Source: a virus
Length of the DNA: 64,000 bases
Direction: 5' to 3' (one strand)
IMG/VR virus record: IMGVR_UViG_3300032020_000002
Of this stretch, positions 19,738 to 47,712 are shown piece after piece; positions within the stretch are counted from its first letter, which is position 1; the number at the start of each line of letters is the position of its first letter. The notes below the pieces were generated by a model that was not told where the DNA came from, ran no database searches, and worked only from the letters and a program-made list of their open reading frames with translations. Both the position numbers and the translations under genes were made by a program.

Positions 19738-19993
19738 TATGGGCGACACGGTAACTTTCAGAAGGCATCTGCACCTCGATTCATCACCACAGGGAGAATT
19801 AGTGCCGACTTTCTGCTCGGAATATGTTTCATACGGCAGGCATCATTTCTACACGGACACCAATATGAAACCGCCAACAAATGAAGAACTGTTTTCAAGA
19901 TACCCGCTTGACTTCATTGGCTACATAGGGGCATGGGTTTCCAGCTTCACAAAGAAACTGTGGAGAAAAAGGCAAGCCACCGATGGGATTTGA
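19730..19993 (+). CDS. hypothetical protein in GC-rich block (3' end overlaps tRNA)
   Basis: ORF track; overlap with tRNA makes 3' end uncertain. Confidence 0.35.
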   Translation: MSDMGDTVTFRRHLHLDSSPQGELVPTFCSEYVSYGRHHFYTDTNMKPPTNEELFSRYPLDFIGYIGAWVSSFTKKLWRKRQATDGI

Positions 19994-20060
19994 ACCCACG
20001 ACCTTTCGCTTTCCTGAATAATATACAGGGCGATTGCTCTTTCCGTTGAGCTACGGTGGC
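19975..20060 (-). tRNA. tRNA with ~13-nt intron-like insertion in anticodon arm; isotype unresolved
   Basis: Reverse complement reads GCCACCG-TA-GCTCAACGGAAAGAGC-...-GTGGGTTCAAATCCCAT-CGGTGGC-T: perfect acceptor, D and T arms. Confidence 0.65.
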
Positions 20061-20788: not shown

Positions 20789-21007
20789 ATGGCTCGAAAG
20801 AAGAAAAATGAAATCACATCATACCAGTTGTTTTTCTTCATTATTTTCGCCTTTTTTGTGGTAGGCATAGCTGTGGCTCTGATTGACAGGGCAAGAATAA
20901 TGGCGGTAATCCTTGTCATTTTATTGGCATTAAATTTTGCACTTTTTAAAATTGGAGGTAAATATGGCAACAGCAGAAGAATTCAACCCATTAAGAACCG
21001 CCGTTAA
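20789..21007 (+). CDS. small membrane protein
   Basis: two TM helices. Confidence 0.5.
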   Translation: MARKKKNEITSYQLFFFIIFAFFVVGIAVALIDRARIMAVILVILLALNFALFKIGGKYGNSRRIQPIKNRR

Positions 21008-21845
21008 AACAGTGGCTTTTCTGCTTGTTATTGGCGTTGTTGCTTCCCTTGTTTTCGGAAGCATAGCGGTGATACCAGCAGGACACAGGGGCGTATTATT
21101 GACTTGGGGTAAAGTGGAAGACAGGATACTCGGAGAAGGAATAAGCACCATTACACCATTTTTGAATCAGGCGGTGCTGATGTCTGTCCAGACAATGAAA
21201 TATTCGGCAAAGGCGAGTTCCGCTTCCGCAGACCTTCAGATAGTAACCACCGAAGTGACCCTAAACTACCACATAGACCCTGCACAAGTGAACAGAATAT
21301 ACCAGCAATTGACTGTGGCTTACGAAGACAGGGTTATATCACCCGCAATTCAGGAAGCGGTAAAAGCCTCGACAGCCGAATTTACAGCAGAGGAACTGAT
21401 AACAAAAAGACCCATGATTAAAGAGGCAATAGAAACAGCATTAAAAGAAAAGTTAGTGAATCATGGAATAATCGTGGAAAGCGTCTTTTTGACCGATTTC
21501 AAATTCAGTCCAGAGTTCGAGACGGCAATAGAGTCGAAGGTTACTGCACAACAGCTTGCACAGAAAGCAGAAAACGACCTAAAGAGAATAAAGGTCGAGG
21601 CAGAACAGGTGATAGCACAAGCAAACGGAACGGCAACTGCAAAGCTGACAATAGCCACAGCAGAGGCACAGGCAATCAAACTACAGGGTGAGGCATTAAG
21701 ATTAAACCCCGAAGTAATTCGTCTCCGTGCAGTGGAGAAATGGACGGGATTAATGCCACAATATCTCATAATGGGTAGCGGACAAGATAACGGTCTTGCT
21801 GGACTCATTTTGAATATGCCCACGCCACAAAAAGAAGGGGGGTAA
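20964..21845 (+). CDS. SPFH/band-7 (stomatin/prohibitin-like) membrane protein
   Basis: N-terminal TM then AVIPAGHRGVLLTWGKV...; SD TGGAGGTAAAT upstream of ATG 20964. Confidence 0.75.
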   Translation: MATAEEFNPLRTAVKTVAFLLVIGVVASLVFGSIAVIPAGHRGVLLTWGKVEDRILGEGISTITPFLNQAVLMSVQTMKYSAKASSASADLQIVTTEVTLNYHIDPAQVNRIYQQLTVAYEDRVISPAIQEAVKASTAEFTAEELITKRPMIKEAIETALKEKLVNHGIIVESVFLTDFKFSPEFETAIESKVTAQQLAQKAENDLKRIKVEAEQVIAQANGTATAKLTIATAEAQAIKLQGEALRLNPEVIRLRAVEKWTGLMPQYLIMGSGQDNGLAGLILNMPTPQKEGG

Positions 21846-24076: not shown

Positions 24077-24100
24077 TAATGCATTACCATCCTTTTTATA
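24070..24100 (+). promoter_or_regulatory. promoter class 2: GCATTACCA box + TTTTTATATT
   Basis: AAACGCATTACCAAC-TATA motif also at 26655, 27565, 45647, 47248, 47685. Confidence 0.45.
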
Positions 24101-24121
24101 TTCTCCGATTGAATTAATTTT

Positions 24122-26653
24122 ATGAACAAGACGATTTTTTTAGTTTTAGTTATATTTTTAGCTTTCATTCCGTTTGCAGGCGCAGTCCCAAGCCCCTATT
24201 TCGTATCCCCGACACCAAATAATATGACAACTGTTAACGGTGCTAAATATTTTTTAATAAATGTCAGCGATGCTGGAACAATCTCTTCATGCATTTTGAC
24301 CAATTCCACTGGCGGAATATCGCCAGCCAATTATTCAATGACAGTAGATGCAAGTGGAACATACTGCTACATAAATCTCACTACAATTTATTCCCCAATT
24401 GATTATCAGGTTTATGTCAATGACGGGGTGAATACAAACGCAACCGAGTATAGAACAGCTTCACCATTTTTCTGCGGTGTTGTTGATAGGGCGCATTCCA
24501 TTTGGATTCTTGACCGTGATTACAATTGCACTGGTGTTGGTTTCATTATCACCAGCTATTCAATTCTTAATGGCAGAGGTCATTATGTTGATAGCACAAG
24601 CTATACTATGCAGACAAATGGTGAATCTTGGTTCGGCGCATCAACTTGGTTCAATTCGCTTGTCTATAACATCACTCTTTATAATGGCATTGCATCTTCA
24701 AGCAATGCTTTCCCTCAAGGATATAGCCAAATAATCAATTCCACAATTTACTCTGATAGTCATGGGACTGCGAGAAGCAGGTTTGGGACTTATAGCATGA
24801 CCCCGATGTTGCAGAATGTTGTGCTTTATGGATACATTTATGATGATTTGTCTGGTAGTGATATTGTTATCAGAAATGTGACTGCCATATCCACATCGCC
24901 ATTGGGATTTCCAACATTTGAAGTTTCGGCATTAGCAAACAACGAACTTTATATTTATGATTCAACAATTTTTGGAGCTTTGAAAAGTTATGGCGCTCTT
25001 TTTGTTGATAAAGTCATATTGAATGGAATGGGTCGCAGTTGGTGTATCCAGTTTGGCTTTCAAGGATATATTGTCCAGTCGGCTACAAATTCAATAATTT
25101 TCAACTGCACTCTCGCATTTGTCGGGGGAACAGACGGTTCATGGTCAGGCAACACCATCAATTCCACTATAGGCGCTGATTTCATTGATAGCTCATTTAG
25201 TGGAATTTTTAATGACAACAAGTTCGGAACTAACAACATACTCGCAATGGGCAGTAGAAGCGATGCTGGGTGTTTTTTCGTATCGAATCCAATAAATAAC
25301 ACACAAGACGGTTTCGCCGACCCGATTATGGTAAGGACTTCAGCCCCGCTTAATTGCACCAATATCAATGGAGGAAATCCTGCACAAGTGTTGCTTTTTA
25401 CTGGCTGTCCTTACATAGGCGTGAAAAATGTCAACACGAAAACAATCCTCATCCACAGGAACAATGCCACGATAGAGAACGCCAATATGCAATATTTTTT
25501 CGACACTAACCAATACTCCTATGGGACTAACAGCCTCGTCAACAATTCCGTCATAAGCAATTACGCCAACCTTACTTATTCGAGGAACATCACATTACTC
25601 AATGTCACAGTCCCAGTCATAAATAATATAGGTAACAATTCCCAATATTACAGGAAATGGTATGTAGTTTACAGGGTCGTTGACGCTGACGGCTATCCGA
25701 TAAGCGCAGACACAATCAACATAAAAAATGTGTTCGCAACACAAGTTTACTCCTCAACCAATAAGATTACAGAAGCCACACCACAGACGCAGTATTATGA
25801 TGACAAGGGAAGCGTAACGACATACGAGCCTTACAACATATCTGGAACGAAAGCTGGCTATGTGCCGAATTATACAAGTGGAATAACTTTTTCAAGCGAT
25901 GCACACCCGATTTTACAGCTATCAAAAATACCAACAATAACCATACATTCACCGATTTCAAGAAAATATGCAAAATATGTCATTGATTTGAATGTTTCGG
26001 CGGATACGATTATCAATACTTGGTGGCATAACATCAACAACACGGCAAATGTGACTTTCACTCCCAATAGCACAATCAATCTTACGAGCATGGGCGATGG
26101 CGAATATACTGTTTATGTGTATGCCAATGGAACGACAGGAATACAGAACTATTCAAAGGTCTATTTCACAGTTGACACCACAAGACCTCTCGTTTTTATC
26201 ACTTCTCCAACTAACGGAACAGTAATTGATTTAATAGAAAGCGGAGCAAAAGATGTAAGCATAATAGGAATCGGCGAAAACATACACCTCGACAGCGTTT
26301 GGACATCCAACCCAGATTTCGGTGCGAATCTTGGCACTTCTGAAAACTGGAAATTCACATATTCAAACACACCAGACGGAAGCTATTCAATAACAATTTA
26401 TGTCAATGACACATATGGAAACATAGGCGAAGCGGAAGTCAATTTCGTGGTAAAAAGCCTTTTCGTAAGGGGAAATGCGTTATTTGGTGGAATAATTCCC
26501 CTCATAATAGCCCTCGGATTAATCTTTTCACTTATATCGTTATTCGTTTCCACCAATCTCGAAAATCCAAAAGATTATTTCGTTGAAATTGTCGGAACAA
26601 TATTATTATTGATGGTTGTCGCTTCAGCTTTAGTGGTGTATTTCACTTTCTAA
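24122..26653 (+). CDS. giant surface glycoprotein-like protein (signal peptide, N-x-S/T-rich ectodomain, C-terminal TM anchor)
   Basis: N-terminal hydrophobic leader, dozens of NxS/T sequons, C-terminal GGIIPLIIALGLIFSLISLFV. Confidence 0.7.
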   Translation: MNKTIFLVLVIFLAFIPFAGAVPSPYFVSPTPNNMTTVNGAKYFLINVSDAGTISSCILTNSTGGISPANYSMTVDASGTYCYINLTTIYSPIDYQVYVNDGVNTNATEYRTASPFFCGVVDRAHSIWILDRDYNCTGVGFIITSYSILNGRGHYVDSTSYTMQTNGESWFGASTWFNSLVYNITLYNGIASSSNAFPQGYSQIINSTIYSDSHGTARSRFGTYSMTPMLQNVVLYGYIYDDLSGSDIVIRNVTAISTSPLGFPTFEVSALANNELYIYDSTIFGALKSYGALFVDKVILNGMGRSWCIQFGFQGYIVQSATNSIIFNCTLAFVGGTDGSWSGNTINSTIGADFIDSSFSGIFNDNKFGTNNILAMGSRSDAGCFFVSNPINNTQDGFADPIMVRTSAPLNCTNINGGNPAQVLLFTGCPYIGVKNVNTKTILIHRNNATIENANMQYFFDTNQYSYGTNSLVNNSVISNYANLTYSRNITLLNVTVPVINNIGNNSQYYRKWYVVYRVVDADGYPISADTINIKNVFATQVYSSTNKITEATPQTQYYDDKGSVTTYEPYNISGTKAGYVPNYTSGITFSSDAHPILQLSKIPTITIHSPISRKYAKYVIDLNVSADTIINTWWHNINNTANVTFTPNSTINLTSMGDGEYTVYVYANGTTGIQNYSKVYFTVDTTRPLVFITSPTNGTVIDLIESGAKDVSIIGIGENIHLDSVWTSNPDFGANLGTSENWKFTYSNTPDGSYSITIYVNDTYGNIGEAEVNFVVKSLFVRGNALFGGIIPLIIALGLIFSLISLFVSTNLENPKDYFVEIVGTILLLMVVASALVVYFTF

Positions 26654-26654
26654 A

Positions 26655-26690
26655 TGCATTACCAACTTTTAAATATCATTTCAGTAATAT
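26655..26690 (+). promoter_or_regulatory. promoter class 2 (AAATGCATTACCAACTTTTAAATA)
   Basis: upstream of ATG 26698. Confidence 0.45.
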
Positions 26691-26697
26691 TAATCAC

Positions 26698-27561
26698 ATG
26701 ATTAAGATTTTCATATTGGCAATTATAGCCTGTCTTTTAATTTCTTTAGGCACGGCAAGTGCAATCCCTTATAAAGACAAGGACATACAGAAAATAGAAT
26801 TCGTTCACTATAAGGATGTCAAAAATGCCAAATCGACACCGCAAGCAGTTGAAAAGTGCTATAAAACCCTCGGATACAAATGGGGCGTTTTGCCAGTAAG
26901 TTATATGATAAATCCGATAAACCCTGATGGTTTAAGCGACAATTTCATAAAATCGGCGATTGTCAGTTCCACCGAGACTTGGGATATTGCAGTCACCAGC
27001 AACCTATTCCACGATTATCCGAGCATCAGCTATTTAGTCAGTTATGGCGTTCAGGACTTCAACAATGCAATCGTATTCGGAGATTATCCAGACAACAATG
27101 TTATAGCAGTAACAAGCCTGTGGGTCACATCAAAAAAGAAGCAGATTGTAGAATTCGACATAAAATTCAATACGAGGTTCAAATGGGGCGATGCGACAAA
27201 CCCGCCTACGAACACATCCTGCACACAGTGGGAACAGCAATGCCAGTGGTTGTATGATGAGTGCGCAAAATGGGACAATATAACTTATGAGAACGGAACA
27301 GTTGAGGAAATATGCGTTGAATGGCAACCCGTCTGTTGGGATTGGCAGGATGTCTGCGTAAACTGGCAAACTGACATAATTCCAGTAATGGATTTGCAGA
27401 ACATAGCGACACATGAACTCGGTCACGCAGTGGGTCTCGATGACATTTACACTTCAACTTGTTCAGAAGTTACCATGTATGGATACTCAACTTACATGGA
27501 AACCAAAAAGAGGACACTTGAACAGCCCGACATCAAAGGGATTTCGGGCATTTACCCATAA
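26698..27561 (+). CDS. secreted metzincin-type zinc metalloprotease
   Basis: signal peptide; HELGHAVGLDD zinc-binding motif followed by Met-turn-like TMYGY. Confidence 0.7.
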   Translation: MIKIFILAIIACLLISLGTASAIPYKDKDIQKIEFVHYKDVKNAKSTPQAVEKCYKTLGYKWGVLPVSYMINPINPDGLSDNFIKSAIVSSTETWDIAVTSNLFHDYPSISYLVSYGVQDFNNAIVFGDYPDNNVIAVTSLWVTSKKKQIVEFDIKFNTRFKWGDATNPPTNTSCTQWEQQCQWLYDECAKWDNITYENGTVEEICVEWQPVCWDWQDVCVNWQTDIIPVMDLQNIATHELGHAVGLDDIYTSTCSEVTMYGYSTYMETKKRTLEQPDIKGISGIYP

Positions 27562-27604
27562 ACGCATTACCAACTTATTTAAATAAAGGGAGCAAAAGAA
27601 TACT

Positions 27605-30271
27605 ATGAATAAATTAATCTGGTTATTCCCAATTCTATTTTTAGCCATATTTTTAATCCCCCCAGCATCGGCAACGCTTGGAATAACTTGCGATAGCGAG
27701 GAATACGGAATGCTTTCCAGTTTCGAGGTCGTGTGTCAGGTCAATACAACAGACAATGTTGATATAACTATTGAGCTTCCCTCGTTGTTAACTTCTTCAT
27801 CTGCCGAATTTTCAGTCCTTTCAGCCGTATCCGATATGGTCGCTTTTGATAATTACACTTCTGTGCTTGCGAATGAGACCTGCGCTGGAGTGTGGGAAGA
27901 TATAGGTGGAATTTACAACTGCACCGACAATGGGTCTATATATAATTGTCTGGAGCTTTATGATTCCAACACTACCTGCGAATATCCCATATATACAAAC
28001 GAAGGGACTTACGATGTGCCGAGAAGCGATTACATACAATCTGAATACAAGCCAGTTGCGTCAACAGACCTCGGAGGAAACAAGCACAAGATAACCGTGA
28101 ATTCCGATTACGCCGACACCAAATTCAAAGCAAAACTGTCAGTCCCAAGCGGTTCTATCGGCAAGTTCAGCATTTTGGCAGAGACGGCAACCGATTCTGG
28201 TGAGCTTGACCCAGTGTGGCTTTCCGATTACAATTACAGGAGACCAATCACTCTAACAGTATCGTCAGGCGCATCCCCATCAGGCTACCAAAAGGAAATC
28301 ATACTCAATGCTGGAAATGTGGGTGCTAATTACAACTGGACTAATGAATGCGTTAATTCCAATGCCACAAAGACGAGGCTGACAAATGCAAGTGCTGTGG
28401 AGCTTCCGTTCTGGGTTAAGTCCTGTTCCGTTTCTGGACAGAATATGACGGTGTGGGTGAAGGCTGACCAGCCCATAAACACGACTGGCTACACAATTTA
28501 CGCCTATTACGATTCGCCTACGGCAATTCCAATGAGAGGCAATGCTTCTCTTGTCTTCGAGTTCTTCGATGACGCTTCGACAGACCAGAGATACCTTTAC
28601 AACACAGTCGGTGTTCCTTCTGGAACTTTCACATGGGTTAACAAAACAGAATACAGGATTTGGTCAAGCACCAGCAACATAGAGGTCTTCATACTCTCCA
28701 AACAGAAGGTTAATGCAACCCAAATGCCATACAAACTCATAGCTTCCGTGTTGTTCCAACCATCGGCGAGAAATACGAGGGTCGGCGTGTCAAATACGGG
28801 TTCGAGTGGCATAATGCCTTGGTATGCTCAAGTCATATTCACTTCAAACCAGCAGAATTTCAGGGGTAGTGATGTCTTCAGCTATGTGCCACCTTCATAT
28901 CTTGCTTGCACCACTGGCAATTTGGCTGGTCATCTTGATGGTGTTTATCATACTATCAAGATAACGAGCAACAGCACTTCGACATTTTCATATGTTGACG
29001 GCTCACTTTATAAGGACTGCTACCCTCCGCAATACACACCAAATGCATTAAACAGCCTTTATGGATACACATACAAAGCAGGTCTCGCTTACGCTTCCAT
29101 CACATATATAGATTACTGGATGGTAGCCAAGCATTACAGCCCAGAGCCGACTTACACAATAGGAGCAGAGGAAATATTCGGCTATGTCATCGAGTTCACC
29201 AAATTCGCTGGTGGAAACGAAACAATCACTCTTCATGGAAACGCAACAACGAGCTTCACCGTTTCACCAGAAATCACATACACGGAATCAAAAATAAATC
29301 TGACGGGAACTCAGGCTTCCCCATATCCGCTTAATCCGAAAGTTTATGTCGGGAACACTCTCATCTTCAATTATTCTGGAAACTATTCTGGAAGCCAAAT
29401 AGTCAGTTTCAATGTCAGCATAATCAATGATTGGTTCACCGACCACCCATCAGGAGAAGTCCCAGTAATCACCCTCATGGACAACGCTGGCGGTATGCTT
29501 ATGACAGACTTGTATGTGAAGTCAATATCTCCAACGCCAGTGACTTATTGTGACGGAAGTGAGTATTACGACCCAGTTGACAAGGTGTGCAGGAAAGGAA
29601 GCACGACAATGGCTTCAACCAAAGACAAGAACTACTATGCTTTCAGGATAACCACGACATTATCGAACTGGTATTCGACTGACCCGTTCAGGTGGGAGAG
29701 GGAAAACCAATCGCTTCCAGTCTATGTGAGCGCAGATTTCCATGTCCCAGAACATACCCTTAACATTAATGAAACAAATGCAAGGAGGGTTTACATAGAT
29801 TTCAACAAGGTGTCACAATATACAAAATATGACATCTGGAATTCTCTGCTGACAAGGAAGGATTTCTACCTGAGAATAATGGGAGACGGAACGAATGATT
29901 ATTATGTCGTAGGCATACCTTCGCCGAAAGAAATATTCAAAGACAATGTGGTTTTCACCAATTGGAACTACAATTCAATTACGAAGACAATAACAATCAA
30001 TAATGTCGCAATGTCCCCGCATGAATTCACATTCGTATTCGGCGAAGCGACAGAAGTAAGGCAGGATTTCATACTTGGAGGAATATTGCCATTACTGATA
30101 GGCATCGGACTTCTGTTATTCGTAGTGACCACAGCTTTCAGCCTCGGAGAAACACAGTCATCAGACCCGAAGGAAGCACTGAAAGAAATACTGGCAAATG
30201 TAATAGGCATAGTAGTTATACTAATCGTAGTGGCAACGGCGCTCACCATGTATCTCGGTCTTCCGCTTTGA
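27605..30271 (+). CDS. giant surface glycoprotein-like protein (signal peptide, C-terminal TM anchor)
   Basis: as 24122; C-terminal ILGGILPLLIGIGLLLFVV. Confidence 0.7.
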   Translation: MNKLIWLFPILFLAIFLIPPASATLGITCDSEEYGMLSSFEVVCQVNTTDNVDITIELPSLLTSSSAEFSVLSAVSDMVAFDNYTSVLANETCAGVWEDIGGIYNCTDNGSIYNCLELYDSNTTCEYPIYTNEGTYDVPRSDYIQSEYKPVASTDLGGNKHKITVNSDYADTKFKAKLSVPSGSIGKFSILAETATDSGELDPVWLSDYNYRRPITLTVSSGASPSGYQKEIILNAGNVGANYNWTNECVNSNATKTRLTNASAVELPFWVKSCSVSGQNMTVWVKADQPINTTGYTIYAYYDSPTAIPMRGNASLVFEFFDDASTDQRYLYNTVGVPSGTFTWVNKTEYRIWSSTSNIEVFILSKQKVNATQMPYKLIASVLFQPSARNTRVGVSNTGSSGIMPWYAQVIFTSNQQNFRGSDVFSYVPPSYLACTTGNLAGHLDGVYHTIKITSNSTSTFSYVDGSLYKDCYPPQYTPNALNSLYGYTYKAGLAYASITYIDYWMVAKHYSPEPTYTIGAEEIFGYVIEFTKFAGGNETITLHGNATTSFTVSPEITYTESKINLTGTQASPYPLNPKVYVGNTLIFNYSGNYSGSQIVSFNVSIINDWFTDHPSGEVPVITLMDNAGGMLMTDLYVKSISPTPVTYCDGSEYYDPVDKVCRKGSTTMASTKDKNYYAFRITTTLSNWYSTDPFRWERENQSLPVYVSADFHVPEHTLNINETNARRVYIDFNKVSQYTKYDIWNSLLTRKDFYLRIMGDGTNDYYVVGIPSPKEIFKDNVVFTNWNYNSITKTITINNVAMSPHEFTFVFGEATEVRQDFILGGILPLLIGIGLLLFVVTTAFSLGETQSSDPKEALKEILANVIGIVVILIVVATALTMYLGLPL

Positions 30272-30285: not shown

Positions 30286-31029
30286 TTATTTCCACATAAT
30301 CTCAAGGAAAGGAACGAAAAGGAAGGCGACCAAGCTGAAAAACACCAAAAACCTGATAATTCTATCGTTCTCCAGCTTCTCCAACCCTTCCGATGATACG
30401 AAATCAAGGTAAATCGCATATATCAGCAGGGGAAGCGAGTTGGTGACATACTTGCCTGTGGGGAAAACCAGCACCGAAGCCAAAATCAGCGTTAAAATGA
30501 CAAACTGCCTTCTCTTGGCGAGAATATAATATGTCGGCAGGAGATAGCCTAAAACAAGCAAATTTGGCGTTAAATCAGCATATCCGTTGGGATTCACCAT
30601 GACAAATCCCCTATAGGCAAAATAAATGAAAACTGTGAATATCCCTACTGTTATGTGGTTAATATGAAACCTTTTAATTGGGTTATTCTTGAAATACAGT
30701 ATTATGAACATTCCAGCGAGTAGGAATATCCAGTTATCAGGTTCGGGCATCAGCAAACGGATATTGAAAAGATTCAGCAAAAAAAGAGAGCCAATAAACA
30801 ACGGATTTTGTTTCTTATCTTCCACCATAGTGAAAGAAAACAGGGTTGCATACCACACGGCAATGACAAACAGATTGGCTATGAGAGGGCTGTGATATAT
30901 CCCAAAAAGACCATTAAGATAACGGGCATCATGCCCAAAAATCCAGTTATTTGCGGTAAAAACAACAAAGTAGAAGATTGGAATAATGATTACGGAAATA
31001 AGGGCGAATCTTTTATTGTTTTTGGGCAT
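30286..31029 (-). CDS. polytopic integral membrane protein (~7 TM)
   Basis: hydrophobic throughout. Confidence 0.6.
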   Translation of the reverse strand: MPKNNKRFALISVIIIPIFYFVVFTANNWIFGHDARYLNGLFGIYHSPLIANLFVIAVWYATLFSFTMVEDKKQNPLFIGSLFLLNLFNIRLLMPEPDNWIFLLAGMFIILYFKNNPIKRFHINHITVGIFTVFIYFAYRGFVMVNPNGYADLTPNLLVLGYLLPTYYILAKRRQFVILTLILASVLVFPTGKYVTNSLPLLIYAIYLDFVSSEGLEKLENDRIIRFLVFFSLVAFLFVPFLEIMWK

Positions 31030-31778: not shown

Positions 31779-32866
31779 AATTAAAAGTAAAAGAGTTAAA
31801 CCCCAATCCATTCAAAAAGTTCATAAACAACGGAAAATTGGACAACGAAAGGGTAGATAAACTCAAGGAAAGCATCGAGCATGGCACACTTCCAGAAAAT
31901 TTCACAGTGAGGAAGAACGATGATGGAAAATATGAGCTTACATCTGGACATCACAGGCTTGAGGCAATAAAGCAGGTCAAAGGCAATGATTATGAAGTTC
32001 CTGTAGAAGAAGTCAATTACAACGATGAAACCATGCTCATAGACATGGTAAGGGAGAACCTGACGCAAAGGAACACGGATTTCAGGGATACCGAGGAAAG
32101 CATAGTGCTGGCAAGGGCATGGTTACAAAGTGGAGAGAGTAATTTCAAACGGTTTGAAAAAACTGCTTTCGTCTCTAAAAGAGGACGAATCGGAGAGGGC
32201 AGACCAGAAGAACCAGACACTTTATACAAGATAGCTCAATTTCTTTCAAAACAGGGGAAAACAATCAGTCACGAAACAATAAGGTCATATCTTAATATTC
32301 ACGACAAACTCGACCCAGAACTGCATGAAAAAGTCCAAAACCTTGAATCAGCTACAAAAGAAGAGAGGGAAGAAGCATTGCCTAAAAGGGTAGCTTCCGA
32401 GCTTGCCCAGATAGAGCAGGAATACCAGAAGCCAGTTTTTGAGCAAATCAAAAAAGAAAGGCTCAACAAAGAAGATTCGATTAAAGCCATAAGCGCATTC
32501 AAAAAAGCTCCAGAAGAATTGAAAGAGAAGGTCGTGGCTGGCGAAGTGCCAATAACCGATGTAGAACATGAAATGAAAATAAGGGAAATTAGTGTAAAAC
32601 TTGGTTCGCTGGCACAGGAAGAACAAGGAGAACCCAACATTTCTTTGGAAATTAGGGAATTGGTCAACTATTTCATAGACGGATTTATGAAAATAGGAAG
32701 AAAATTTGGCGACAAATCCTTTATATCCGAAGATATGATGCCAAACATCCCAATAGAAAAAGCGGAAAGTTTAATGGAAGAAATGGAACACACCATCTAT
32801 GAAGTGCTGATACCCTTCTACCAAGAACTGAAATTGCAAATAGAATTAAGGAAGGAAAAACCCTAA
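31775..32866 (+). CDS. ParB/Sulfiredoxin-fold (ParB-like nuclease domain) protein
   Basis: N-terminal LNPNPF...YELTSGHHRLEAI (GxxR box). Confidence 0.65.
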   Translation: MKLKVKELNPNPFKKFINNGKLDNERVDKLKESIEHGTLPENFTVRKNDDGKYELTSGHHRLEAIKQVKGNDYEVPVEEVNYNDETMLIDMVRENLTQRNTDFRDTEESIVLARAWLQSGESNFKRFEKTAFVSKRGRIGEGRPEEPDTLYKIAQFLSKQGKTISHETIRSYLNIHDKLDPELHEKVQNLESATKEEREEALPKRVASELAQIEQEYQKPVFEQIKKERLNKEDSIKAISAFKKAPEELKEKVVAGEVPITDVEHEMKIREISVKLGSLAQEEQGEPNISLEIRELVNYFIDGFMKIGRKFGDKSFISEDMMPNIPIEKAESLMEEMEHTIYEVLIPFYQELKLQIELRKEKP

Positions 32867-33504
32867 AATATCAATGGTTTTATCTTGTTAATATTTGCAG
32901 AGTAAAATTGGGAAGCGTGATTTTCGCAGTCCTTCCAGTCAGCAAAAAACTTCGTCTTACACTCATCGCACTCGCATAAATATCCATGCTTCCTGTTGAA
33001 GCTCTCCTGAAAGCAGGGTCTTAAAGGCTCTTTGCTCTCCTCTTCCATTTGAACTTCCTCGTCTGTATCATAAAGCGTTTGGACAAATGGGGTTTTGTAG
33101 TAAAAAGCCTTCATATAATGGCTCAATTTCTTTACATTCCCGCCCCTAAATACAAGAATCTTCGCAATCGAATTATCTATGTTCAACATAGGATAGAAGG
33201 TAAAATCAAGGACTCTCCTTACTCTTCCTTCTATGGAATCGGCAACCTGCGAAGTAAAAACATAAGTCAAATGCCTCTTCCTCGATTTCGCCAAAATGTT
33301 AGCAACGAATATGTTTTTATTTGTCCTTGACATTCTTGAGTCAGCGATTGTCCAAAGCTCGTCCATAGCGATGTAGCGCCACTGTTCATCATCACTTTTA
33401 ATGGTGTTAAGCTGGTTGATACCACTGATAAAATGATAAGGGATTTTGAACAGATGTATGTTTGAGTAAATCATCATTCCCTTGAAAAACCAGTTACGCC
33501 ACAA
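32863..33504 (-). CDS. P-loop NTPase-like protein lacking recognisable Walker A (Walker-B-like AMDEL present)
   Basis: YIAMDELW...SRKRHLTYVFTSQ; no GKS/T seen. Confidence 0.4.
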   Translation of the reverse strand: MWRNWFFKGMMIYSNIHLFKIPYHFISGINQLNTIKSDDEQWRYIAMDELWTIADSRMSRTNKNIFVANILAKSRKRHLTYVFTSQVADSIEGRVRRVLDFTFYPMLNIDNSIAKILVFRGGNVKKLSHYMKAFYYKTPFVQTLYDTDEEVQMEEESKEPLRPCFQESFNRKHGYLCECDECKTKFFADWKDCENHASQFYSANINKIKPLIF

Positions 33505-33565: not shown

Positions 33566-34057
33566 TTACCTACCCCCAGTTCGCCTACTACATTGGTTAA
33601 AGGCATTTTCATCACCTCCTCTTTTGTATGCAAGAAATTTACCTTGAAAATTCCTCTCCCGCCTTTTTGCTATTATACTATTTTTCATCGCTGTCTTGAC
33701 ATACCATTCTGGTTTAGTTACTCTTCCTGTCATCAATTTTCTCATTTTTTCTGTATATTCTTTGCTTTTCATGTAATCCTTACCATTTGGAAATTGCACT
33801 TTTTGGTGGCATTTTCTACAAAGATTTTGTAAATTTTCAAGTCTGTTATCCCAAACATTATGATTTTTATGATGTGTGTCCACTTTTCCCCCTTTCCAAA
33901 ATTTCCCACACGAAGAACACCTTTTACCAATAAGGTTTCTTCCTATTATATTAGCATATGTTTTTACAGTTGTTTCTTTATAATTTTTATTGTAAATTTT
34001 GGGTTCTGGTGTCCAATTCGGATTATAATAATAATGTCCACTTCTCATAATAATCAT
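33566..34057 (-). CDS. HNH endonuclease (free-standing homing-type)
   Basis: CSSCG...DTHHKNHNVWDNRLENLQNLCRKCH. Confidence 0.7.
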   Translation of the reverse strand: MIIMRSGHYYYNPNWTPEPKIYNKNYKETTVKTYANIIGRNLIGKRCSSCGKFWKGGKVDTHHKNHNVWDNRLENLQNLCRKCHQKVQFPNGKDYMKSKEYTEKMRKLMTGRVTKPEWYVKTAMKNSIIAKRRERNFQGKFLAYKRGGDENAFNQCSRRTGGR

Positions 34058-34778: not shown

Positions 34779-37299
34779 TTACCTTCTTACCTCTATTTTA
34801 AAACCTCTTTCTGTTATAGCGAAAAAGCGTTTACCATAAGATTCGTATTCTTTTTCTGTTATCAAAATAATATGCTCCCCTTTCTTTTCTCCATGAAAAA
34901 GCCTTCCCATCCTCTGTCCTTCCTGCCTGCGACTCCCAAAAAGGAAATCAATTTCAATGACCCTTTCTATATCTGGAAGGCTTAACCCCTCGTCTCCCAC
35001 TCTACTCACTACGGTAACATCGCTTTTATTGATTATTTCAAGCCTGTCCTTTGTCTGTCCGTAAACGAACGGTATCTCAAATTTCTTTGATAGGCTTTTA
35101 CCTAAATTTATTTTGTCGCAGAACACTATGGTCTTCTTTTCCTGCTGTAAAAGCTCCGCAAGTTTGCTTTCTTTTGCTTTATAATCACTCAATATATACA
35201 ATATCACATCGGGGACTTCTATTATCCCTTCTTCTATCAGGCTATCCCATGATATTCCTATGGGGAATCCTGTGAGAGCAAAAATATAATTCTCCCTCTG
35301 GTCTTCCCTAAAAGGCGAGCCTGAATTATGCGTTAAAACTTTGTTTGCAAAAAAGTTATGATTGTCGGCAATTTCCAAGTCGTAAAATGTTCTATTTTCT
35401 TTTCTTACTCTTACTTTTTCAATTCCGATGACTATGCCCTTTTCAATACGCATGAACACCACTCCTATTATGACAAGAGAAACACAGTGTTGTGCCATTG
35501 TTTACATCTAATCTGAATTCGGGATATTTTGAGAATAATTTTTTATGATGAGCATGAAGGTTTTTTTTACTACCACAACTTGTGCAGGTGAAATTGTCAT
35601 GTTTGAATACATCTCTTCTCCATTTCTTGTATTCCAAAGAATTAGAATATTCCTTTCTCCAGTAAGATACTCCTCCTTGCCAGTTCGGATTAAGTTGTCC
35701 TTTCTTACCATACATTCCATTGTTTTTTCCGCTTAGACAGCCTGTAATTTTTAATGTAGCTAATCTTTTTGCCATTATTCTCTCGTCTTTCCAAAGAGTG
35801 TGTCCTTTTTTGAATTCCGTATTAGGAGAATATCTTTTTCCTTTATGTATTTTTGATAATTTATTCCGTGTTTTTCTGTCATGGGTTTTGCCAAAAAACG
35901 GATTCTTCTCTCCGACAAGTTTCCCTTTCAGTGATTTCGATATATTTTTTCTATGGTTTTCGGTAAATTCCCTTCCCTTCAATGAGTGACTTATCTTGTC
36001 TCCAGCGTATTTTGCTGGATTGTTCAAAGTGCAATGCGGGTGAACCAATATCGTAGTTTCATCTCCTTCTATTAGCTCACTTGCCTTTTTGTATTTACCT
36101 GAAACAAAGAACTCGTGGTCTGGTGAGCAGAGTATTTCTTTTATTCCAAATTTTGTTTTTATTTTAACTTTCAGTATTTCGTTAACTTCCCTCTTGTAAT
36201 AATCGAGTATAGGTTTAGCTTCTATCTGTCCTGTTCCATGATTGAAAGACAGAACCTTCACTGGCAATTTATTATCAACGATTTCACTTATTTTCATCAC
36301 ACTTCCATCTTCCAGTGTTACCGTAGTTCTTTTATGTAAACATAATCCAATCCTGTATCGTGTGTTTAAGGTCGCAAATCGTGAGAACTGGTTGGCTGGT
36401 AAGTGATGGACTTCATCAAAAATCACTAAAGCCCATTCCTTGTCCCTCACCTTATCAAAAGAGTGATATGTAACGATAGATGTTTCCCCTTCCCTCAAAT
36501 CGGTATATTCTTTTATTCTTTCTGTCCATTGCTCTACAAGCGTCACTGTCGGGACAACTATGAGCTTATTGCCCTTTATTGAGGATAGTGCCTTCAGACC
36601 AAAAAATGTTTTGCCTGCGCTGAATGCCCAAAAAACTCCAGTCGCACCAGTCTCAAGGAATTTATCCCACGCCTCTTTCTGATAATCCCTCAAAGTGAAT
36701 TTTACTGGTCTCTCAAGAAGGTCTTCAGTTTGGACTGGTTGTTTCATAAAAGGCAATATTCCGTTATCTATAAGCTCCGCAAGTAGCTGAAATTCATATC
36801 CCTTTTTGATTTTTATTTTGTCTGTCCCTTCCCTTCTGCTTAAAAATTTACCAAATTTATTCCAAGCATCTTCCTGATGCTCTTTTCCTGTAAGTAGCAT
36901 TCCATCGAACACCTGTAAGGGCAATTTCATTTTGCCTTTGAATTTCCCTTCCAATTCTGCTGGCAATTCACCGAGCCAGTTCATGTATTTGTTTATCTTG
37001 AAAATGTTATAGGTGTCCGTTGAGAAATCGAGCCACCCCAAATTCATTCGTATAAATTTCGGAACAGGAACATACCATTCTTCGTGTTTGCCAGTAGGTA
37101 TAAGGACATAAGGTTTGTTAAGGAAAGGCATGAAGTTGTCTTGGTCAATCTTTATCCTCATTTTGTCTGATATTTCCGATAATTTTTCCGCATTGGCTTT
37201 TTGTGATACTTCCAACTCTGTCTTCATCTCCTCTATCCTTTTGGAATAATCCTGCGATATTTGTCGCAATTCCTTCAATTTCTCTTCATTGACCATTTC
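34779..37299 (-). CDS. SF2 (DEAH-type) helicase interrupted by an intein; single frameshift inside the intein HNH domain near 35445-35500
   Basis: Walker A GVFWAFSAGKT, motif II DEVHH, motif III RIGL|intein|SGSP, motif VI QRMGRLFH in downstream ORF. Confidence 0.7.
35325..36342 (-). mobile_element. intein (Hint domain + NUMOD3-like + HNH endonuclease) inserted in helicase motif III; HNH frameshifted
   Basis: starts CLHKRTTVTLEDG, block B SPDHEF, ends VLTHN|S; HNH LCFSCHN. Confidence 0.65.
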
Positions 37300-37313
37300 A
37301 TCACCATCAAAAA

Positions 37314-37670
37314 TCAAAAACCGCCAAAAAGGTCTTTGGTCGTCTTTGCCCCTCCCTTCATGGCGCTTATCTGCTGTAACCCTCCAAGTATGAGCAGGAA
37401 TTCCTTCCTTCCGAGCCTGAACCTTGACACCCTTAACAACAGGAAATGCCTCACCCACTGCCTTATGAGGTCGCTATCCAGATAATCGGCATATGATAAC
37501 ATAGCAGACATACCGAATATCTCTTCTGGTGTCAAATCAGAAACGGTGTGCAGTCTTTCATCTGCTGGCTTCATAAGCTCAAGAGACACCTTTGCAAGTG
37601 CCTCATCGAGACCTACTATTCCCATCTCTTCCGATTCCTTTTTCAATTTTTGCCTCATCTCAAGCGTCAT
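37314..37670 (-). CDS. hypothetical protein
   Basis: ORF track. Confidence 0.45.
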   Translation of the reverse strand: MTLEMRQKLKKESEEMGIVGLDEALAKVSLELMKPADERLHTVSDLTPEEIFGMSAMLSYADYLDSDLIRQWVRHFLLLRVSRFRLGRKEFLLILGGLQQISAMKGGAKTTKDLFGGF

Positions 37671-38592: not shown

Positions 38593-38796
38593 ATGGCAGT
38601 AGCAGAAGCAGTTAAGGACAAGATAGTTTCCGTTTTGGGACTTATCGTGGTTCTTATCGCTGTAGCACAGATGCTTCCCACTTTGAAGACAGGTCTCGCC
38701 AGCATCACACCCGATGTCCCTATACTATCGTTCACGCTGATAGGGCTTCTGGTCGGTATTGGGCTGATAATCTTCGTTGTGGAAGCTGTGTTTTAA
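38593..38796 (+). CDS. small two-helix hydrophobic protein (archaeal-virus capsid-like), paralog A
   Basis: 67 aa; ~85% identical to 38888..39091. Confidence 0.6.
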   Translation: MAVAEAVKDKIVSVLGLIVVLIAVAQMLPTLKTGLASITPDVPILSFTLIGLLVGIGLIIFVVEAVF

Positions 38797-38887: not shown

Positions 38888-39091
38888 ATGGCAGTAGCAG
38901 AAGCAGTAAAAGATAAGATTGTGTCCGTATTGGGTCTCATCGTAGTCCTGATTGCGGTAGCACAGATGCTTCCGACCCTGAAAGATGGTTTAGCGGTAAT
39001 AACACCAGATGTCCCCATTTTGAGCTTCGGGCTGATTGGGATGCTGGTCGGTATTGGGCTAATCATCTTCGTTGTCGAAGCGGTATTCTAA
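38888..39091 (+). CDS. small two-helix hydrophobic protein, paralog B
   Basis: tandem duplicate; SD GAGAGGAAAAAC upstream. Confidence 0.6.
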   Translation: MAVAEAVKDKIVSVLGLIVVLIAVAQMLPTLKDGLAVITPDVPILSFGLIGMLVGIGLIIFVVEAVF

Positions 39092-39216: not shown

Positions 39217-41835
39217 ATGCGATATTACATTATATTAGTCACGGCTATGATTTTTAGCTTCCTATTCCTGCAAAATGCACAGGCATCATGGACATATTAT
39301 TCTGTTGGGGCAGATGTCGGTGATGCTTCGCACACAACTATCGTGCCACCAATTGCGCCATATGCTCCCATTACTTGTTCTCATACATTCACAGAATATG
39401 CCAGCATAGGAGCAAACTCATTTCCTTATACTGCGAGCTTCCAATGGTATTCACCAGACAATACTCTGCTTTTGAATTTCCCAGCCGAATACACTTCAAA
39501 TCTCTCTTGTATGCTGATAGGTAGTCAGACGACCTCAAACCGCAGGAATAATTCCTTGACATATGAATCAAAGACAACGATGACAACAAGCGCAACAACT
39601 CATGGCACATGGGTTCTTGATACATATACCTGTTCCGACCCACCGAACAACAAACTGGTTATCGCCAACAATGGTTCTATTAAGGATTACTATGGAAACT
39701 ATCTTTGGGGATACACAACAGTCTTTTCATGTGCAAACTTTGGAGGATGCAGTCTTCCCACAGAATCGTTAATGCTTAATACGGTAATAGACCGCATAAA
39801 TAAATTCTATTATGGGATGAAAAACACCCCGAAAACTTGCCCGACAGGAACATCAATAACTAATTCTTATGAAGGCTCAACAGGCGCAACATTAGGAACT
39901 GCGGGTCAAATCAAACTCGCCTCTTGGTATATTGTTCCGTTTTATAATTATTATGCAAGTCAGGTCAACATCTCTGTATTAGAAGCAACAAATTATTTTA
40001 CCAGTTTAACAGGTTGCGCCACCCCTTCTTACACCATATACGATTATGATACTGTGGCAAACACGACCACACTCCTTTCATCCACAGCCCCCTATAATGG
40101 ACAACTGACATTAAGCAGAAACAGGGAACATATGCTTTTCATAAAAAAAGAATGTTGGGGAAGCAGAGGAGATTTCGGATTCGCAATATATGGCAATTAT
40201 AGCGATTATAACATTTCTGTCAATACATATCAGCCAAACCTAAACTGCACGGCTTGGGGTGCTTGTGTAAGCAACCAGCAAACAAGATACTGCGAAGACT
40301 TAAATCATTTAATTGACCCATTCATAGACCAGAGAAGTTGTTTTAGTTATGCACAACAGTCATATTTCTTGGGATTTGACACATACACATCAACAAAGTC
40401 ATGGTATTGCACACAAGGCACAGGGCTTTTCATCCCTCCCATAACTTTCCTCGGTTGTGCAAGAGACCCGCTTTTGCGGGATAGGAAAACCCCGTCAGGA
40501 TGGTTAAGGGGAGGGCAGTTCATCACAGACACTTACGGAAATAGCGGATGGATAGAAGATTACATTGATGTTAGCGAAAGCACATATTATGCACCAGACG
40601 AAGGTGGCATCGAGACGAGCCTGAAAATGTGGTATTTGCCGAGAAAGACATATCTGCCAGTATGGAATGCCACAGGGGACAACAGGGTTTGGTGCAACGA
40701 AACAACGGAAGGACAAGTCGGTTCGGTTTACAAGGACATCAATAACACTTTCTGGATAGCAAGAAATGTAACAGCATTTAGCCCATATATGTCGTTGAGT
40801 TACAGGGTAAGAAGTTGCGATTCGGCTGAAACACAGACAACTGGTGGCTTTTCATGCTGGTCTGGTTGCCAGTGGTTCGGCACTTGCGCCAATATAGGCG
40901 TTTGCAATTACACAGGAACAGACCTATACACTTGGAACGGTTGCCCCGAAAAGCCAAAAGCATCATTAGGAATTAGGGTAAAGGATTTGGACACTGGAAT
41001 ATATCCATTGCAAATAGTCATCCCAGACGACAAAATACCAGCATTTTTTCCCACCGACCCCTTCGTTGGAACAGGGTATCAAGAACACAGAATGAACAAT
41101 TTGACATATAATCACACCTATGAAATAACATTTGCAGTCCCTCCACCCAACGGTCTTCAGGAAAAAGACGCTTACTGCGTTTATCTCGATGATGTCAACA
41201 TAAATTTCAGGAACGAACCATTCATCTGCGGTGGCTCGCAGTGCTATGACGACTATAATACAAATGGAATCAACGATTATACTTTCGTTCAAGTAACGCC
41301 GTTGTCATCAAACAGTTGCACCATCGAGACCACCTGCATGGATACGGCGTGTGTCCCCAATAAGCTGGCTACGGATGTCCAACAGATGTTGCTCGGCAGA
41401 CAGAATTATACCTGCGATGGAACTACTTACATAACGATAAACCCGACCACAAGGGAATGCTCATACCTTCAGGACAATGCAATATGCATAGCACAACAGG
41501 AACAAGAACAGGCAGGGGAGAACATGACAAATGTGAACGATTACCTATGTTCACTCATCAACTCATCTGGGTTCGATGTTTGTGATACAGCAAAAAAGGC
41601 AGGCTTCTCATTCGCTTTCAGCACAATCTTCATAGTTTTCCTGATTGACTTGGCGATAGGCAGTTTGTTGGCATTCAAAATAAAGCACTGGGAAGTGTTA
41701 CCAATCACTTTAATTGGGTTAATGCTAATAGAAACATTATTCGGCGTTTTCCCAGCATGGTTCGCAATATTGTTCGGCGTATTTTTGGCATTGTTCTTGG
41801 CTGAATTCATTGCAAGAAGATACAGGGGTGGATAG
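39217..41835 (+). CDS. giant Cys/N-glycosylation-rich surface protein with C-terminal TM helices
   Basis: signal peptide; many NxS/T; C-terminal double TM. Confidence 0.65.
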   Translation: MRYYIILVTAMIFSFLFLQNAQASWTYYSVGADVGDASHTTIVPPIAPYAPITCSHTFTEYASIGANSFPYTASFQWYSPDNTLLLNFPAEYTSNLSCMLIGSQTTSNRRNNSLTYESKTTMTTSATTHGTWVLDTYTCSDPPNNKLVIANNGSIKDYYGNYLWGYTTVFSCANFGGCSLPTESLMLNTVIDRINKFYYGMKNTPKTCPTGTSITNSYEGSTGATLGTAGQIKLASWYIVPFYNYYASQVNISVLEATNYFTSLTGCATPSYTIYDYDTVANTTTLLSSTAPYNGQLTLSRNREHMLFIKKECWGSRGDFGFAIYGNYSDYNISVNTYQPNLNCTAWGACVSNQQTRYCEDLNHLIDPFIDQRSCFSYAQQSYFLGFDTYTSTKSWYCTQGTGLFIPPITFLGCARDPLLRDRKTPSGWLRGGQFITDTYGNSGWIEDYIDVSESTYYAPDEGGIETSLKMWYLPRKTYLPVWNATGDNRVWCNETTEGQVGSVYKDINNTFWIARNVTAFSPYMSLSYRVRSCDSAETQTTGGFSCWSGCQWFGTCANIGVCNYTGTDLYTWNGCPEKPKASLGIRVKDLDTGIYPLQIVIPDDKIPAFFPTDPFVGTGYQEHRMNNLTYNHTYEITFAVPPPNGLQEKDAYCVYLDDVNINFRNEPFICGGSQCYDDYNTNGINDYTFVQVTPLSSNSCTIETTCMDTACVPNKLATDVQQMLLGRQNYTCDGTTYITINPTTRECSYLQDNAICIAQQEQEQAGENMTNVNDYLCSLINSSGFDVCDTAKKAGFSFAFSTIFIVFLIDLAIGSLLAFKIKHWEVLPITLIGLMLIETLFGVFPAWFAILFGVFLALFLAEFIARRYRGG

Positions 41836-41836
41836 A

Positions 41837-42154
41837 ATGCGTTTCAAAGGACAAGGATTGACATCAGAAGGGTTTCTCCTTTCTTATACAACTTTCATAA
41901 TGATAGTCGTTTACTTTAGCGGTCTCATAGGTCAGGCGATACTTACAGGTGTCCCAGAAAAGCCGACAGCGACAGGGGACACATTCATGGACGCTTTAAC
42001 AAATTTCATATCACCTTTCACTTATTTCATAGCACTTTTGACGACAGACGCAATTCCAGAATTCAAGTCAATAATGGCAATATTAATAACACCAGCAGTA
42101 GTGATGCTGATATTCATAATAGCAAAACATTTGCCAGTCATAGGAACTGGGTGA
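41837..42154 (+). CDS. small integral membrane protein
   Basis: three hydrophobic segments. Confidence 0.45.
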   Translation: MRFKGQGLTSEGFLLSYTTFIMIVVYFSGLIGQAILTGVPEKPTATGDTFMDALTNFISPFTYFIALLTTDAIPEFKSIMAILITPAVVMLIFIIAKHLPVIGTG

Positions 42155-42163
42155 TTATAATTG

Positions 42164-47247: not shown

Positions 47248-47275
47248 CGCATTACCAACAAATATTAACTTAAAT
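47248..47275 (+). promoter_or_regulatory. promoter class 2 (AAACGCATTACCAAC...TTAAATATTAATAAA)
   Basis: upstream of ATG 47291. Confidence 0.4.
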
Positions 47276-47684: not shown

Positions 47685-47712
47685 CGCATTACCTTCTTTT
47701 TTAAGGCAATTT
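47685..47712 (+). promoter_or_regulatory. promoter class 2 (AAACGCATTACCTTC-TTTTTTAAGG)
   Basis: upstream of ATG 47727. Confidence 0.4.

Follow-up and report, generated by a model that had tools for sequence, protein, structure and literature searches.

A gene cluster encoding two sequon-rich giant proteins and a predicted secreted metzincin in an apparently archaeal virus-like element

The A-M-B gene cluster and its promoters

The DNA described here is a stretch of 64,000 nucleotides from the virus record IMGVR_UViG_3300032020_000002, in the following called the window, and it carries at positions 24,122 to 30,271 a cluster of three genes, A, M and B, in which two genes for very large, sequon-rich proteins flank a gene for a predicted zinc metalloprotease. 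The cluster had been pointed out by a first-pass annotation of the sequence, and its three open reading frames (ORFs) were found with exactly the coordinates and lengths given there, all of them on the + strand and separated by gaps of 43-44 nt. The cluster is real and non-random, and its original description is corrected here in one respect, i.e., the membrane anchor of the two large proteins.

24122-26653, + strand: gene A, 843 aa, 32 N-x-S/T sequons
26698-27561, + strand: gene M, 287 aa, predicted metzincin (Pfam Peptidase_M10), signal peptide aa 1-22, no membrane anchor
27605-30271, + strand: gene B, 888 aa, 23 N-x-S/T sequons
24081-24102, + strand: promoter of A, GCATTACCA followed by the TATA-like box TTTTTATATT, start of the element 41 nt from the ATG
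26656-26677, + strand: promoter of M, GCATTACCA followed by TTTTAAATAT, start of the element 42 nt from the ATG
27564-27587, + strand: promoter of B, GCATTACCA followed by TTATTTAAATA, start of the element 41 nt from the ATG

Signal peptides and transmembrane (TM) topology were derived from Kyte-Doolittle windows and the AxA rule. All three proteins start with a short basic stretch, a hydrophobic core of 15-17 residues and an AxA site, giving signal-like n-h-c regions that end in FAGA/VPS (A), TASA/IPY (M) and PASA/TLG (B), so that the cleavable-looking signal peptides noted before are found in each of them. The three genes moreover share a class of promoters, as had been proposed: the exact element GCATTACCA is present five times in the window with 0.44 copies expected, none of 100 shuffles reached this number, and three of the copies start 41-42 nt before the ATG codons of A, M and B. 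At these three sites a TATA-like, A/T-rich box follows 3-6 nt after the element and is located approximately 25-30 nt from the ATG, and this spacing suggests archaeal promoters giving rise to leaderless or near-leaderless mRNAs; the mRNA of gene A is probably leaderless. In the related contig L007 the positions of the A, M and B promoters carry GCGTTACAA, GCATTACGA and GCATTACCA, respectively, the copy at B being identical, which shows that the element is kept in place while its sequence diverges. The common promoter class points to co-regulation of A, M and B. Promoters and terminators of the bacterial type occur in the region at chance level. Further copies of the element, exact or with a single mismatch, are found elsewhere in the window.

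47249-47257, + strand: fourth + strand copy of GCATTACCA, 42 nt 5' of the ORF 47291-47671 (126 aa)
preceding the small ORFs 45705-45962 and 46634-46795, + strand: one-mismatch copies GCATTACAA
436-444, - strand: fifth exact copy of GCATTACCA with TATA box

The copy at 436-444 lacks an obvious ORF at the usual distance of 41-42 nt; the first ATG follows at +55 and opens a frame of just 16 codons, and the transcript from this promoter may be a non-coding RNA, or the mRNA of a gene that starts with a codon other than ATG.

The protease M

M is, judged by its signal peptide, its Pfam match and an invariant catalytic motif, a predicted secreted metzincin, in agreement with the secreted zinc metalloprotease of the first-pass annotation. 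The Pfam profile Peptidase_M10 (PF00413) is matched with 34.6 bits (cut-off 24, E 2e-8) in one stretch covering profile positions 90-158. The C-terminal half of M can be aligned with the catalytic domains of the matrix metalloproteinases (MMPs) MMP-16, MMP-10 and MMP-8 over the zinc-binding helix and the Met-turn, and the N-terminal half reaches only 2 bits against solved MMPs, at which the alignment is unreliable.

27412-27444, + strand: zinc motif H239-E-L-G-H243-A-V-G246-L-D-D249
27475-27477, + strand: Met-turn M260 (in TMYGYS)
27214-27384, + strand: insertion, approximately aa 173-229 (57 residues), directly before the catalytic helix

In an alignment of M with 13 homologues the residues H239, E240, H243, G246, D249 and M260 are invariant. 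The motif HELGHAVGLDD is thereby present with its third ligand kept, which is an aspartate, Asp249, as in snapalysins, and not a histidine. Profiles of the snapalysins themselves score far below their thresholds (PF02031, 16.1 vs. 25 bits; NCBIfam NF033628, 21 vs. 300), and the best NCBIfam match of M, a family of myxosortase-dependent metalloproteases, is likewise far below its cut-off (45 vs. 250). M has no PRCGxPD cysteine switch. It contains an invariant Cys54 in a C-Y-K context, located five residues ahead of the part that can be aligned with the N-terminus of mature MMPs; as Cys255 is invariant as well, a disulfide bond between Cys54 and Cys255 is as possible as a role of Cys54 in latency.

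The insertion before the catalytic helix contains six cysteines (175, 182, 189, 206, 213 and 220) with a spacing of 7-7-17-7-7 and a tryptophan at position +3 of each, and its turn N-I-T-Y-E-N-G-T carries two sequons. This pattern would fit an antiparallel hairpin held together by three disulfide bonds. The insertion is complete in M and in two close relatives from similar virus-like contigs (P0002, P0003), shortened to two plus two cysteines in P0004, reduced to a vestige of one plus one in P0014 and missing from the other nine aligned homologues. The gelatinases MMP-2 and MMP-9 carry their fibronectin type II exosite at the equivalent point, and this equivalence makes a role of the insertion in substrate docking plausible.

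The family of M is large, with 1954 homologues found. Relatives with a name belong mostly to the DPANN archaea (Woese-, Pace-, Nano-, Alti-, Micr-, Iain- and Aenigmatarchaeota) with identities of 37-47%, and further relatives at 27-33% identity come from bacteria of the candidate phyla radiation (CPR)/Patescibacteria; a minority of the metagenome-assembled genomes (MAGs) with a relative of M is labelled as Methanosarcinales, Methanoperedens, Archaeoglobus or Bathyarchaeia. At the ten cellular loci inspected the homologue of M stands alone among housekeeping genes.

The giant proteins A and B

The ectodomains of A and B are dominated by the residues N, T, S, Y and G, as described before, which together account for 44% of A and 40% of B. 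Both proteins are rich in N-x-S/T sequons: A contains 32 and B 23, while composition-preserving shuffles yield 16.3±3.4 and 11.6±3.2, respectively, and the reversed pattern S/T-x-N occurs only 13 times in A and 11 times in B, making the sequons approximately twofold more common. These sites are strongly conserved. In A, 31 of the 32 sequons are kept in a homologue of 83% identity and 19 of the 32 in a homologue of merely 38% identity; in B, 21 of the 23 are kept in a homologue of 73% identity. Since this conservation is far above that of neighbouring residues, it argues for selection on glycosylation sites. The sequon richness claimed earlier is thus confirmed at about twice the shuffle expectation, and A and B are presumably glycosylated.

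A consists of a signal peptide (aa 1-21), a putative Ig-like N-terminal domain, a beta-rich centre (approximately 112-600), two Ig-like domains (approximately 600-780) and a C-terminal hairpin. The two Ig-like domains on the C-terminal side are matched by the Pfam families Big_13 (30.1 bits) and Y_Y_Y (27.1 bits), just over threshold, and a low-confidence model suggests the additional Ig-like domain at the N-terminus. B starts with a signal peptide (aa 1-23) and a Cys-containing N-terminal domain, followed by a DUF2341 domain (approximately 200-328), a probable concanavalin A (ConA)-like jelly roll (approximately 314-523), a beta-rich region (525-815) and the hairpin.

28202-29173, + strand: DUF2341 plus ConA-like (LamG/glucanase superfamily) module of B, from profile searches

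The DUF2341 profile of Pfam matches residues 257-328 of B with 42.6 bits against a cut-off of 23.4. In an exhaustive profile search with B 2584 hits were obtained, and most of the best 150 of these 2584 align within residues of approximately 200-525, so that the DUF2341 plus ConA-like module is the sole part of B with wide homology; outside of it, i.e., in the N-terminal 200 aa and in residues 525-888 including the hairpin, matches are found in related virus-like contigs alone. The domain following DUF2341 starts with FEFFDD and ends with VRKYxxPEPTxxxGxEE. A profile built from residues 310-530 of B and 15 homologous segments finds GH16 glucanases in the PDB (E 2e-4) and, weakly, the LamG domain of neurexin; Laminin_G_3 is matched by two of the 16 members of this set, B itself being unmatched, and some members match the 3-keto-disaccharide hydrolase. 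Together these matches indicate a ConA-like lectin/glucanase fold, as far as profiles can tell. The catalytic motif E-x-D-x(x)-E of GH16 is absent from B.

A word-indexed search yielded just seven homologues of A and two of B, and AlphaFold2 models calculated with these few homologues reached mean confidences (predicted local distance difference test, pLDDT) of 38 for A and 32 for B. Sequence and profile searches of the PDB returned nothing credible for either protein, and a Pfam scan of five fragments from the two ectodomains was empty at E values up to 10. Of the folds proposed for a check, Ig-like domains are found in A by Pfam, and a parallel beta-helix in residues 120-500 of A is unsupported, the Pfam fragment scans being empty. 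No S-layer or PGF-CTERM family of Pfam or NCBIfam is matched by A or B.

The C-terminal hairpins and a candidate capsid protein

A single C-terminal TM anchor had been assigned to both giant proteins. This is wrong, as both have two hydrophobic helices at their C-terminus, connected by a short, acidic loop with P-K-D/E inside. Over the last 60-70 residues the two proteins are homologous to each other (score 100 vs. 30.1±5.4; none of 2000 shuffles).

26477-26650, + strand: C-terminal hydrophobic hairpin of A, aa 786-843, TM1 791-809, loop STNLENPKDYFVE, TM2 823-841
30056-30268, + strand: C-terminal hydrophobic hairpin of B, aa 818-888, TM1 823-841, loop GETQSSDPKEALKE, TM2 862-880
38593-38796 and 38888-39091, + strand: two tandem, near-identical ORFs of 67 aa, with two hydrophobic helices each

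The hairpins resemble a small protein of 67 aa that is encoded twice in tandem further downstream. For a background, 428 real TM-like segments were taken from the window and from cellular loci, 426 of them remaining after the two copies of the 67-aa protein itself had been excluded. Against these 426 segments the best match of helix 1 of the 67-aa protein is TM2 of B (score 59) and the second best is TM2 of A (44), with a 99th percentile of 37.7; for helix 2 the best match is TM1 of B (56; 99th percentile 40.5). The cross-combinations are not significant. From this pattern of matches the hairpins of A and B look like the 67-aa protein with its helices swapped. The resemblance is clear in the case of B, while A shows it in part.

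Hairpins of the same kind end a B homologue of 895 aa and a LamG protein of 560 aa in the distantly related contigs L009 and L099, and an A homologue of 1202 aa in the distant contig L013. Directly upstream of this A homologue, L013 encodes a two-helix protein of 70 aa with the shared loop motif DVP(L/I)(L/I)S.

The 67-aa protein can furthermore be aligned end to end with VP21, the major capsid protein of the virus His1 (Smith-Waterman score 63 vs. 26.5±4.8, z 7.6; none of 3000 shuffles), and both are reciprocal best hits when all His1 ORFs are compared with all 268 six-frame ORFs of the window. At the end of helix 1 they have the motif A-x-x-(M/L)-L-P-T in common. The two 67-aa proteins are thus candidate major capsid proteins of the His1 VP21 type. 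They match no family in Pfam, PHROGs or NCBIfam and show no obvious pro-segment.

Relatives, synteny and accelerated divergence

An identical protease was found on at least 20 contigs of up to 73 kb from several samples, and the A-M-B order recurs in a relative on a contig of 58.7 kb. Protein identity to L007 is 83% for A, 67% for M and 70% for B, and 85-97% for most flanking genes; a few other genes are divergent as well (52, 59 and 77%). The divergence of A-M-B is accelerated relative to its flanks. The gene next to B is an example of a flanking gene that is far better conserved than A, M and B, its product being 91% identical to the counterpart in L007.

30286-31029, - strand: polytopic membrane protein, 247 aa, 6-7 hydrophobic segments, convergent with B

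This membrane protein is without a family match in the Pfam and NCBIfam scans, and its membership in the A-M-B module is uncertain. In the more distant contig L099, in which the B homologue is 38% and the protease 59% identical, the genes for an E-like protein (E belongs to a second set of giant proteins described below), a LamG-hairpin protein, the B homologue, a 117-aa protein and the protease follow each other. The protease being only one gene away from the B homologue, its linkage to glycoproteins of the B type survives deep divergence. Homologues of A and B are restricted to similar mobile-element contigs.

The nature of the element and its host

The element looks like an archaeal virus or virus-like element of approximately 60-73 kb that is uncatalogued as judged by searches of INPHARED and IMG/VR. 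The phage records of INPHARED show neither a DNA nor a protein match to it, in IMG/VR neither protein patterns nor an exact 41-mer revealed a relative, and the GTDB genomes yielded cellular homologues of the protease and not the element itself. Among approximately 50 ORFs of the window that were scanned no housekeeping family was recognised. The genes that could be named encode a TnpB, an RNA ligase, an SPFH protein, a ParB-like protein, a helicase and HNH/NUMOD3 endonucleases, next to a tRNA with an intron. Both the TATA promoters and the tRNA intron argue for an archaeal host, for which DPANN archaea are the leading candidate. The window has a GC content of 39.5%. Given the VP21-like tandem genes and the order of the genes around them, we consider it rather probable that the element is a virus of the lemon or spindle type.

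The proposed role of A-M-B and its alternatives

We tentatively propose, with a confidence slightly short of even, that A-M-B is a co-regulated, fast-evolving module directed at the host surface, in which adhesins of the virion or its envelope are combined with an extracellular protease. A and B would be exported via Sec, N-glycosylated by the machinery of the host, and held in a membrane-like virion shell, or at the budding site, by their shared capsid-protein-like hairpin. Their ectodomains would act as adhesins or receptor-binding proteins, by Ig-like domains in A and by DUF2341 and a ConA-like lectin domain in B. M would be a soluble, secreted zinc endopeptidase that was probably captured from a DPANN-type cell and that may since have gained the disulfide-stapled hairpin beside its active-site helix; secreted together with A and B, it would cleave a proteinaceous surface layer outside the cell and by this aid entry or release. 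For A and B the first-pass annotation had offered archaeal S-layer proteins, adhesins or viral spikes. A viral or virus-like structural adhesin is favoured among these by the mobile-element context, the VP21-like proteins, the kinship of the hairpins, the lectin module and the lack of a match to any S-layer family.

Several observations weigh against this proposal. The low AlphaFold confidences leave most of both ectodomains without an assigned fold. In A the second hairpin helix alone resembles the 67-aa protein, and the hairpin loops have no clear positive-inside signature. The similarity to VP21 is based on short hydrophobic sequences and is not found by composition-adjusted BLASTP, and no capsid, packaging or integrase family was recognised in the element by Pfam, PHROGs or NCBIfam. 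The labels outside of DPANN among the MAGs with relatives of M weaken the assignment of the host to DPANN. In the distant contig L013 the genes within 10 kb of a pair of giant proteins include no protease, which makes M an accessory rather than an obligatory partner. Finally, A and B themselves are equally possible substrates of M.

This last point leads to an unlikely alternative, in which M is a maturation protease that processes A, B or a capsid precursor outside of the membrane, akin to the priming of spike proteins. The common promoter, the tight gaps of 43-44 nt and the linkage of M and B homologues kept in L099 would fit such a partnership, as would the divergence of M, which tracks that of B (67 and 70% vs. 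L007), and an insertion specific for virus-like contigs that could dock A or B. However, the L013 pair, an A homologue plus a second giant protein, has no protease nearby, so that the glycoproteins may not require M, the cellular homologues of M are without such partners, no conserved cleavage motif was identified, and the 67-aa protein lacks an obvious pro-segment. An equally unlikely reading takes A, B and M not as components of the virion but as tools to remodel the surface of the infected cell, which would display or secrete them for superinfection exclusion, altered cell contacts of a symbiotic DPANN host or the scavenging of nutrients, much like a set of auxiliary genes. The protease family is typical of DPANN/CPR episymbionts, in which it is a secreted cellular enzyme, lectin and Ig-like domains fit cell-cell adhesion as well, and a separate, more classical structural block with the capsid-like genes and the giant proteins D and E lies 8 kb away; yet the anchors of A and B resemble the candidate capsid protein and not ordinary TM helices, promoters of the GCATTACCA class precede also small ORFs beside that structural block, and accelerated divergence is typical of receptor-binding proteins.

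That the element is no virus at all but a plasmid, possibly a vesicle-forming one whose giant proteins decorate cells or vesicles, is improbable in our judgement. It would explain why Pfam, PHROGs and NCBIfam return no capsid or packaging family and why the IMG/VR and INPHARED searches were without a match, and a ParB-like gene is present; against it stand the VP21-like tandem genes within a His1-like gene order, the density of homing endonucleases and inteins together with an array of tiny ORFs, which are typical of viruses, and the family scans of the window, which revealed neither conjugation nor plasmid replication families. By far the least credible is a cellular S-layer or cell-wall cluster of an archaeon. 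The combination of signal peptide, sequon-rich ectodomain and C-terminal anchor does resemble archaeal surface glycoproteins, but neither an S-layer or PGF-CTERM match nor a housekeeping family among the approximately 50 scanned ORFs was obtained, and the homologues of A and B are confined to similar mobile-element contigs.

Comparison with known systems

Among the closest known systems is His1 (Halspiviridae). Its capsid protein VP21 comprises approximately 70 aa with two hydrophobic helices, as does its reciprocal best hit, the candidate capsid protein of 67 aa, and as in the window larger proteins that combine a signal sequence with a hydrophobic anchor at the C-terminus (VP26, VP27) are encoded after it. 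However, His1 has a genome of 14.5 kb and the element is four to five times larger, the larger proteins of His1 comprise 281 and 505 aa in contrast to four giants of 843-893 aa, and no sequence similarity of VP26 or VP27 to proteins of the window was detected. A counterpart of the protein-primed polymerase of His1 was not found in the window, His1 is halophilic while the composition of the window (39.5% GC) is not, and His1 encodes no protease whereas the window encodes M. In fuselloviruses VP4 (C792 of SSV1, VP4 of SSV19) is a large, hydrophobic terminal protein facing glycans, with a signal-like N-terminus and a multi-helix C-terminus as in A and B, although without sequence similarity to the proteins of the window; multi-helix hydrophobic tails end C792 of SSV1 and also VP27 of His1. 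A precedent is set by SSV19, whose tailspike VP4 has a predicted endo-mannanase domain and whose virions hydrolyse N-glycans of the host surface (PMC12042106). In SSV19 the predicted glycosidase domain is located inside the adhesin, whereas in the window a protein of its own, the predicted secreted protease, would degrade the surface.

With the matrixins (MEROPS M10A) M has in common the PF00413 match, the HExxHxxGxx motif, the Met-turn and secretion. It differs from them by Asp249 in place of a histidine as third zinc ligand and by the lack of both the PRCGxPD switch and a hemopexin domain. Snapalysin (MEROPS M7) shares HExxHxxGxxD with the aspartate ligand, the small size and secretion, but M scores far below the threshold of its profiles and falls into a matrixin-like clade of DPANN/CPR. 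Betabaculoviruses carry a captured MMP that acts on extracellular barriers of the host. By its apparent host domain, Archaea, M is set apart from matrixins as well as from bacterial and viral MMP-like enzymes, of which the granulovirus MMP is a viral example mentioned in PMC4500397. B in turn resembles the giant DUF2341/LamG surface proteins of archaea and bacteria, whose module is matched by residues of approximately 200-523 and many of which are very large.

Terminal or adhesin proteins of spindle viruses and virus-captured MMP-like proteases are known kinds of proteins, and what is new is their variant in an apparently undescribed group of viruses. According to a review of archaeal virus entry from 2024, an enzyme of an archaeal virus that degrades the S-layer is still to be identified (PMC10791045). 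The passage of these viruses through the protein coat is an open question, and M is a testable candidate for an enzyme involved, whose insertion beside the active site may act as a substrate-binding exosite. The most far-reaching interpretation, that M is the first virus protease for breaching an archaeal protein envelope, found in large (60-73 kb) lemon-shaped viruses of DPANN archaea whose adhesins are plugged into the capsid lattice by a capsid-derived, helix-swapped anchor, is in our view doubtful as a whole. For lemon-shaped viruses with their lipid-like capsids, the capsid-protein-like hairpin would be a possible means of attaching large proteins. Furthermore, the cluster points to a group of viruses missed by current catalogues and to gene flow between viruses and DPANN-type cells.

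The second set of giant proteins and further features of the element

Directly downstream of the 67-aa genes a second set of giant proteins, D and E, is encoded, whose architecture is shared by A and B. A gene for a membrane protein of 114 aa is located between them.

39217-44842, + strand: giant-protein set D plus E, secreted, anchored, sequon-rich
39217-41835, + strand: gene D, 872 aa, two C-terminal helices
42161-44842, + strand: gene E, 893 aa, signal peptide, 37 sequons, single C-terminal helix

A kinship between the anchor of D and those of A and B was considered and dropped, the comparison not being significant, and a comparison of the ectodomains rejected a paralogy among the four giant proteins. 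PHROGs had no match to any of A, M, B, D and E, nor to the 67-aa protein; NCBIfam returned nothing for B, D, E and the 67-aa protein and for A only matches far below threshold. In E, residues of approximately 590-790 form about six repeats N-x-S-I-M-N-K-L-Y-x-x-Q-x-E-(L/I) with heptad-like NKLYxxQxE units, which look like coiled-coil or heptad units and have a weak match to Baculo_PEP_C. Just before its anchor E has a Cys-rich motif, C-Y-G-C-x-N-x-(T)-C, that is common to proteins in L009 and L013. E could be a fibre or fusion-type protein.

Apart from these genes the following features were observed in the window:

5742-6872, + strand: TnpB/Cas12f-like gene (OrfB_IS605 plus TNB domain)
19975-20060, - strand: tRNA-His(GTG)
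20937-21845, + strand: SPFH/Band 7 (stomatin/prohibitin-like) gene
33566-34057: free-standing HNH gene
34779-37458, - strand: XPB/ERCC3-type helicase, split by an intein with parts of a NUMOD3/HNH homing endonuclease
47700-57980, + strand: array of approximately 45 back-to-back ORFs of 50-110 aa

A gene similar to the TnpB/Cas12f-like gene is present in L013, an otherwise unrelated virus-like contig. The tRNA is supported by Rfam with 53.5 bits; it is missed by ARAGORN with default settings and is identified by an intron search as tRNA-His(GTG) with an intron of 11 nt beside the anticodon, an archaeal feature. The SPFH gene is 92% conserved in L007; viruses do not usually carry such a gene, which may have to do with the organisation of membrane microdomains at assembly sites. 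The ORF 32863-33504 had been considered as part of a split packaging ATPase, which was dropped as the upstream ORF of 126 aa has no Walker A motif. Free-standing HNH genes vary between near-identical contigs, as seen for the gene at 33566-34057 and for an additional HNH_3 gene in contig L004, and the helicase, which comprises two ORFs in the window, is a single ORF of 729 aa in L007. In the array nearly all of the small ORFs end with ...(K)LKEV(V/M/I)(G). The conservation of these C-termini is explained by a Shine-Dalgarno-like GGA(A/G)GTG in the last codons, which is located 5-9 nt before the next ATG at at least 20 junctions, and endings of the type ...KLKEVV are present also in the distant relatives L009 and L099.

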